Below, piece by piece: positions 21,538 to 22,150 of a DNA stretch of 64,000 nt (position 1 is the first letter of the stretch; each line of letters opens with the position of its first letter). The DNA lies in assembly GCA_000165345.1 (NCBI GenBank), contig CM000435.1, positions 1,152,001 to 1,216,000 of the forward strand. Direction: 5' to 3'. A program made the translations under genes and the position numbers. A model generated the notes under the pieces. It searched no databases and was not told the origin of the DNA. It saw nothing but the letters and a program-made list of their open reading frames with translations.

Positions 21538-21669
21538 ATGGAAAACTCAAACCCAATAATCTACTTTAAACCAGTAGATGAAAATAGCATAGAGGAGGTT
21601 GATGCCAATTCCCTTTTTTATTGCGAAAATAGAGAATTAAATAATACAATAAATCAAGTAACAAAAAAT
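21538..21669 (+). CDS. MIP18 / CIA2 (FAM96-like, DUF59) Fe-S assembly protein, exon 1
   Basis: ATG at 21538. The exon ends ...ACAAAAAAT and is followed by GTAAGTA at 21670. It encodes 44 aa (MENSNPIIYFKPVDENS...QVTKN). Confidence 0.75.
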
Positions 21670-21763
21670 GTAAGTACCTAGCATATAATATAGAATACGG
21701 TTCTTATTCTTAACAATTTCTATTAAACAATCATTTTTTTTTCTTTCTCATACCAATTTTTAG

Positions 21764-22150
21764 GACGTTTACGAATGCATTAAAGATATTATTGACCCAG
21801 AATACCCTTTAACTCTTGAACAACTAAACGTTGTTTCCCTTGAAAACATTATAATCAACCATGAAGAACAAATCATATTCGTTTTCTTCAAGCCCACAGT
21901 AACTAGCTGCTCCCAAGCAAGCCTTATTGGACTATCGCTATACTATAAACTACACACCGTTTTTAATAAAAACTTTAAAATCATTATCAAAGTAGTTAAG
22001 GGTACACACGATCTTGAAGATTCGATCAATAAACAACTCAAAGACAAAGAGAGGGTACACGCTGCACTAGAAAATCCTCAAATATATAAAACTATCACAA
22101 AAGGACTCGCAAACTCCGATGTTTGGGAAGACCAATCTTTATTATACTAA
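21764..22150 (+). CDS. MIP18 / CIA2 (FAM96-like, DUF59) Fe-S assembly protein, exon 2
   Basis: The 94 nt intron spans 21670-21763 and ends TTTTTAG. Exon 2 continues in frame (DVYECIKDIIDPEYPLTLEQLNVVSLE...SCSQASLIGLSLYYKL...VNKQLKDKERVHAALENPQIY), which matches the FAM96B/MIP18 core. The spliced product is 172 aa; TAA lies at 22148-22150. Confidence 0.75.
   Translation, partial: DVYECIKDIIDPEYPLTLEQLNVVSLENIIINHEEQIIFVFFKPTVTSCSQASLIGLSLYYKLHTVFNKNFKIIIKVVKGTHDLEDSINKQLKDKERVHAALENPQIYKTITKGLANSDVWEDQSLLY

Follow-up and report, generated by a model that had tools for sequence, protein, structure and literature searches.

A two-exon Cryptosporidium parvum gene whose product is very probably a CIA2/CIAO2B (MIP18) orthologue

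Does the interval 21538-22150 on the forward strand of the window, by which we mean the whole 64,000-nucleotide stretch of DNA analysed here, hold a single spliced gene, and what would the product of such a gene do? A preliminary description made from the letters of this DNA had proposed a two-exon MIP18/CIA2 gene at this place. The importance of the locus lies mainly in quality control, in that a small spliced gene is recoverable from raw sequence. Furthermore, because CIA2 is essential in Toxoplasma, a correct gene model from Cryptosporidium, a mitosome-bearing parasite, would be useful for studies of Fe-S biogenesis. Taking together the evidence set out below, we regard it as very likely that 21538-22150 (+) is the C. 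parvum orthologue of CIA2/CIAO2B (MIP18, FAM96B, AE7), that it is encoded in two exons and that it has the role in the CIA complex that its family suggests.

The two-exon model and its counterparts in public records

The gene model consists of three features:

21538-21669 (+): exon 1 of the putative CIA2/CIAO2B gene, 132 nt, 44 codons, MENSNPIIYF...QVTKN
21670-21763 (+): predicted intron, 94 nt, phase-0 GT-AG, 23% GC, GTAAGTA...TTTTTAG
21764-22150 (+): exon 2, 387 nt including the TAA stop codon (22148-22150), 128 codons

The start codon is the ATG at 21538; the nearest in-frame stop upstream of it is 14 codons away, with no ATG in between. Removal of 21670-21763 joins this start and the N-terminal NxNPxIY motif carried by exon 1 to the DUF59/MIP18 core encoded by exon 2, with the reactive Cys93 in PTVTSCSQASLIGLS and with INKQLKDKERVHAALEN in its helices. 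Once spliced, the frame is open throughout 172 codons, and the sole methionine of the 172-aa product is the initiator in exon 1. The intron reads GTAAGTA...T9CTTTCTC...TTTTTAG, with AAT/GTAAGTA at the donor and TTTTTAG/GAC at the acceptor, a polypyrimidine tract (TTTTTTTTTCTTTCTC) upstream of the acceptor and a branch-point-like TTAAC motif 50 nt from the 3' splice site. Unspliced read-through from exon 1 meets a stop after 3 intron codons. When the 128 codons of the exon-2 frame were scanned, zero ATG, GTG or TTG codons were found; exon 2 thus has no start codon and its translation requires joining to an upstream exon. As a separate observation, an out-of-frame ATG lies 20 nt 5' of the CIA2 start and opens a 13-codon ORF at 21518-21559 (+) (MKIHFLVWKTQTQ) that overlaps the main ATG.

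The two-exon CIA2 gene is already known and is correctly annotated in the current C. parvum and C. hominis records. Four C. parvum entries carry exactly this 172-aa product (QOY40833.1 with locus tag CPATCC_0011010, CPHLJ_7g5070 and two more), and its UniRef name is 'MIP18 family-like domain-containing protein'. C. hominis has a 172-aa protein with 98% identity to the spliced product, and in its UdeA01 record the gene lies on LN877953.1. The model put forward in the preliminary description (a 132-nt first exon, a 94-nt intron and 172 aa) is exact to the base: its translation matches the deposited C. parvum protein at 100% identity, and the peptides that it quoted are present. It had also remarked that the gene is missing from the track of open reading frames and that ORF-only annotation misses such genes. 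Both remarks are borne out, the first by the mechanical ORF list, which gives a 47-aa ORF for exon 1 (21538..21681) but none for exon 2, and the second by the original 2004 Iowa II annotation, which consists of exon 2 only, 128 aa; exon 2 is 100% identical to this record, XP_628650.1, 'small conserved protein, partial' [Cryptosporidium parvum Iowa II].

The CPATCC_ locus tag of QOY40833.1 presumably stems from the reannotation described in PMC8744675. The introns of that new C. parvum IOWA assembly and reannotation are, according to its paper, 100% supported by RNA-seq (PMC8744675), which would back the intron here indirectly. Isaza et al. 2015 list CHUDEA7_5070 / cgd7_5070 in their supplementary dN/dS table with an identity of 0.983. 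The two-exon products share 169/172 residues, which is the same value, whereas exon 2 alone would give 127/128. Together with the name CPHLJ_7g5070, the table identity makes cgd7_5070 the likely gene ID, so that the gene is probably cgd7_5070 / CPATCC_0011010, and it implies that the two-exon model has been in existence since the Isaza et al. 2015 reannotation. None of 'MIP18', 'DUF59' and 'small conserved protein' occurs as an entry in that supplement. Both locus tags, CPHLJ_7g5070 and cgd7_5070, carry a '7', which suggests that the window derives from C. parvum chromosome 7. A literature search on the gene ID cgd7_5070 returned no papers, and the literature on CIA, in which the targeted search was by gene ID only, yielded no experiment or biochemical data on a Cryptosporidium CIA2 protein.

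The public models of the CIA2 gene differ between Cryptosporidium assemblies, and the deposited versions are as follows:

128 aa: partial model
168 aa: model with an alternative donor
172 aa: correct model
197 aa: model with the intron retained (C. canis)
249 aa: model fused to RPS20 (C. hominis)

The genes around the locus are the same in all Cryptosporidium loci compared:

15834-20021: kinase, 1395 aa, a neighbour of the CIA2 gene
20419-20802: RPS20, the upstream neighbour of the CIA2 gene
22438-24459 (-): ribophorin-II-like membrane protein, 673 aa, the convergent neighbour

Two of the deposited forms would fit the view that there is no functional intron at all and that exon 2 is a stand-alone or partial gene, a pseudogene, or the 3' exon of the upstream RPS20 gene. 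Besides XP_628650.1 (128 aa, partial), GenBank holds the C. hominis entries OLQ18173.1/PPA65932.1 (249 aa, 'ribosomal protein S10'), in which RPS20 residues 1-121 are fused to CIA2 exon 2, and this 249-aa chimera can be rebuilt from the window by using a GT at 20782 and the acceptor at 21763. However, the missing start codon of exon 2 and the family-wide conservation of the exon-1 motif exclude the exon-2-only model, and the RPS20 fusion is rejected on the same two grounds and because it requires an intron of ~980 nt, compared to a genome mean of 99 nt (PMC4637869). Moreover, the chimera swaps out the last six residues of RPS20, and RPS20 is annotated separately, with 126-127 aa, in the loci of 7/7 species. 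We consider it extremely improbable that the locus lacks a functional intron, and retain the two-exon model.

Some further features of the window were observed. The stop codon of the gene at 22438-24459 (-) lies 287 bp from the CIA2 stop, and orthologues of its product give weak Pfam matches to Ribophorin_II_C (PF25147). The region from 29.1 to 31.7 kb holds no ORF of at least 120 aa; within it, 29547-29806 (-) and 31326-31407 (-) match nuclear RNase P RNA (Rfam RF00009, 58.1 bits, E = 4.3e-14, over the full-length model) and a C/D-box snoRNA (SNORD36, 43.2 bits vs a gathering score of 30, E = 0.001).

Conservation of the intron and choice of donor

Orthologous genes were compared from C. hominis, C. 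ubiquitum, C. canis, C. ryanae, C. xiaoi and C. muris, and for each of them the intron was solved as the segment that converts the genomic interval into the deposited protein. A GT-AG intron was found at the same phase-0 site in C. parvum and in 6/6 of the other species. The orthologous introns measure 94 nt in C. hominis, 96 nt in C. ubiquitum, 75 nt in C. canis, 54 nt in C. ryanae, 58 nt in C. xiaoi and 61 nt in C. muris; three of these six lengths are not divisible by three, and in-frame stops are present inside the introns of six of the seven species. All acceptors across the seven species are YAG behind a T-rich tract. Nucleotide identity to C. parvum was distributed over the gene as follows:

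C. ubiquitum: exon 1 0.80, intron 0.62, exon 2 0.84
C. canis: exon 1 0.65, intron 0.47, exon 2 0.78

Furthermore, the substitutions between C. parvum and C. ubiquitum in exon 2 numbered 6/2/52 at codon positions 1/2/3. The third-position bias in exon 2 and the lower identity of the intron thus indicate that the exons evolve as coding sequence while the intron does not. The deposited C. canis protein OJ253_803 is a read-through model of 197 aa (1501-2094 of the extracted locus, JAPCXC010000011.1) in which the intron is retained as coding sequence. The retained segment (GTAAGT...CAG, 75 nt) is a multiple of three, stop-free and 55% GC, and with these 75 nt removed the C. canis product is 172 aa long and collinear with those of the other species. 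Overall, the comparison lends strong support to the intron predicted at 21670-21763, and from it we infer that 21669 and 21764 are joined by splicing in vivo.

The preliminary description had gone further and taken this intron as showing splicing with a strong GTAAGT consensus in this genome. Splicing as such has long been known in C. parvum, but a consensus is more than a single intron can show, and across the seven species the orthologous donor reads GTAAGT four times and GTATGT three times. The hexamer is also unenriched, with 23 GTAAGT matches across the window vs 23.1 expected; since it occurs at the expected frequency, the donor motif alone is no evidence for an intron.

Only four GT..AG pairs in the locus restore an open frame, and among them 21670/21763 is the only one whose donor is kept in all seven species. 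One of the other pairs uses a second donor in exon 1:

21658..21663 (+): alternative in-frame GT (GTAACA), 12 nt 5' of the main donor, giving a 168-aa product

With this donor and the same acceptor, the same gene would have a 106-nt intron and a product of 168 aa without VTKN, either as its main form or with both donors in use. The 21658/21763 pair likewise restores the frame, and the deposited C. tyzzeri protein TRY50509.1 has 168 aa and is without exactly these four VTKN residues. Against this, GTAACA is a weaker donor than GTAAGT, and the upstream GT is found in C. parvum and C. hominis and in none of C. ubiquitum, C. canis, C. ryanae, C. xiaoi and C. muris, while the VTKN residues align gap-free to the xITxx segment before helix 1 in distant homologues. 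Donor 21670 is, moreover, used by four independent C. parvum and three C. hominis annotations. The upstream donor was rejected as the source of the main form, given its lack in 5/7 species and the gap-free alignment of the four residues. We think it very unlikely that GTAACA at 21658 is the main donor or that both donors are used, and it could at most produce a minor lineage-specific isoform next to the 172-aa product of donor 21670.

Family assignment and predicted structure

The 172-aa product was assigned to its family by sequence and by predicted fold. The preliminary description had named the MIP18/CIA2 family with its DUF59 core, and the match to DUF59 itself proved marginal: the Pfam family PF01883 (FeS_assembly_P, DUF59) scored 15.5 bits (E = 0.021) on the window protein, compared to a gathering score of 23.5. 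PF01883 matched 16/16 aligned homologues at E <= 0.1, the best of them at 6.4e-11. Because the Pfam score of the window protein is sub-threshold, the family assignment rests on direct matches to CIAO2B instead, and these agree with the family originally named. In phmmer searches against solved structures, Drosophila galla-2 (CIAO2B) was matched at E = 5.1e-28 and human FAM96A (CIAO2A) at 4.6e-25, a modest margin for a single sequence (101 vs 91 bits). A family profile built from the 16 homologues matched galla-2 end to end (profile positions 1-156) at E = 2.9e-58 and FAM96A at E = 2.3e-47. The 100% identity of the spliced product with deposited C. parvum proteins and the CIAO2B match at E = 5e-28 put the gene beyond chance.

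The conserved residues fall in both exons. In the profile alignment the exon-1 motif MENSNPIIYF is aligned with IENINPNVY at the N-terminus of Drosophila CIAO2B, and the NxNPxIY motif is kept in homologues from outside Cryptosporidium, where at least 90% of sequences have N3 and P6. The cysteine of PTVTSCSQA, C93, is invariant in 16/16 homologues and aligns to the cysteine of ftPTipHCSmA in galla-2. Most residues of NKQLxDKERVxAALEN are invariant among the 16 homologues as well; within INKQLKDKERVHAALEN these are N133, K134, Q135, D138, K139, E140, R141, A144, A145, E147 and N148.

An AlphaFold model computed with the 16-homologue alignment had a pLDDT of 77-88 per 10-residue block over residues 41-160, disordered segments (pLDDT < 50) at residues 8-38 and 163-172, and helices at 129-137 and 139-147. 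The best Foldseek match of this model was CIAO2B in CIA targeting complexes (6tbn_A, E = 1e-12, TM(target) 0.80), with an rmsd of 1.5 Å over 121 columns at 43% identity, followed by FAM96A and then by bacterial DUF59 proteins (3LNO, E = 3e-3).

The strong match to human FAM96A, with 44% identity in the fold alignment in addition to the phmmer value, raises the possibility that the protein is a CIAO2A (FAM96A)-type paralogue serving a subset of clients and not the CIAO2B subunit of the targeting complex. However, CIAO2B was the best match by sequence, by profile (199 vs 164 bits) and by fold (Foldseek 1e-12 vs 8.7e-10), and it is the CIAO2B N-terminus with which the NxNPxIY motif aligns. Furthermore, the homologue search gave one homologue per Cryptosporidium species, so that a single CIA2 would need to fill the general role. 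A CIAO2A-type paralogue is in our judgement highly improbable, and the sequence and the predicted fold support the assignment of the protein as a CIA2/CIAO2B (MIP18) orthologue.

Putative role and comparison with known systems

By homology, the 172-aa protein would serve the CIA targeting complex as its small catalytic subunit, alongside CIA1 and MMS19. If it behaves as its family does, the alpha3/alpha4 helices (INKQLKDKERVHAALEN) would dock onto the narrow face of the CIA1 beta-propeller and the C-terminal HEAT repeats of MMS19 would cap CIA2; Nar1 would supply a [4Fe-4S] cluster that Cys93 holds transiently and may then pass on to cytosolic and nuclear apoproteins. The characterized proteins contact CIAO1 through helices alpha3/alpha4, and their counterpart of this cysteine, Cys93 in human and Cys161 in yeast, is both essential and hyper-reactive (bioRxiv 10.1101/2020.02.01.930206). 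This cysteine, which is Cys86 in Drosophila, sits in a PTxxxCS motif and is present as C93 here. It is essential in Toxoplasma CIA2 as well, according to a study that also analysed C. parvum CIA1 (PMC12674569). The CIAO1-binding helices alpha3/alpha4 appear to be conserved in the Cryptosporidium protein, as far as conservation of sequence can tell.

The C-terminal end of the protein is an extension ANSDVWEDQSLLY at residues 160-172 (window 22112-22147, +) of the form NSD[IV]W[ED]DQSLLY. It is kept across Cryptosporidium and loosely in Gregarina, with an aromatic last residue (Y, or F in Gregarina), is missing from metagenomic and animal-type homologues, and has a pLDDT < 50. A reading of the tail as a TCR-like motif was discarded, as its sequence does not fit the published [LIM]-[DES]-[WF] client motif. 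[quoted passage not shown] We give this proposal little credence.

Among known systems, the predicted intron resembles the short AT-rich GT-AG introns of Cryptosporidium. Introns occur in ~10.8% of C. parvum genes, with a mean of 99 nt and 22% GC, and the 2015 reannotation comprised 688 Cryptosporidium introns with the same mean length and GC content (PMC4637869). With 94 nt and 23% GC, the CIA2 intron shows no notable difference from these.

The product shares with CIAO2A / FAM96A (2M5H, 3UX2) the DUF59/MIP18 fold and 42-45% identity in the core, but FAM96A ranked below CIAO2B in every comparison. FAM96A matches also begin only at the core (query residue 43-44, profile position 37-38), a weak distinction given that the solved constructs are N-terminally truncated. 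The Toxoplasma homologue is much longer than 172 aa, and its reactive cysteine is residue 524 (PMC12674569).

The closest known system is CIAO2B (Cia2/MIP18/FAM96B/galla-2/AE7; 6TBN, 6TBL, 6TC0, 9UKY), a subunit of the CIA targeting complex. The Cryptosporidium protein differs from it in its C-terminal extension of about 13 residues (NSDVWEDQSLLY) and around the reactive cysteine, where it has Lys-Pro-Thr and Ser-Cys-Ser-Gln in contrast to Thr-Pro-Thr and His-Cys-Ser-Met in animals, as well as in scoring under the Pfam DUF59 threshold. The likeness extends from its length (172 aa, compared to 157-159 aa in the deposited Drosophila chains) to the NxNPxIY motif, the reactive cysteine of PTxxxCS and the CIAO1-contacting helices with NKQLxDKERVxAALEN.
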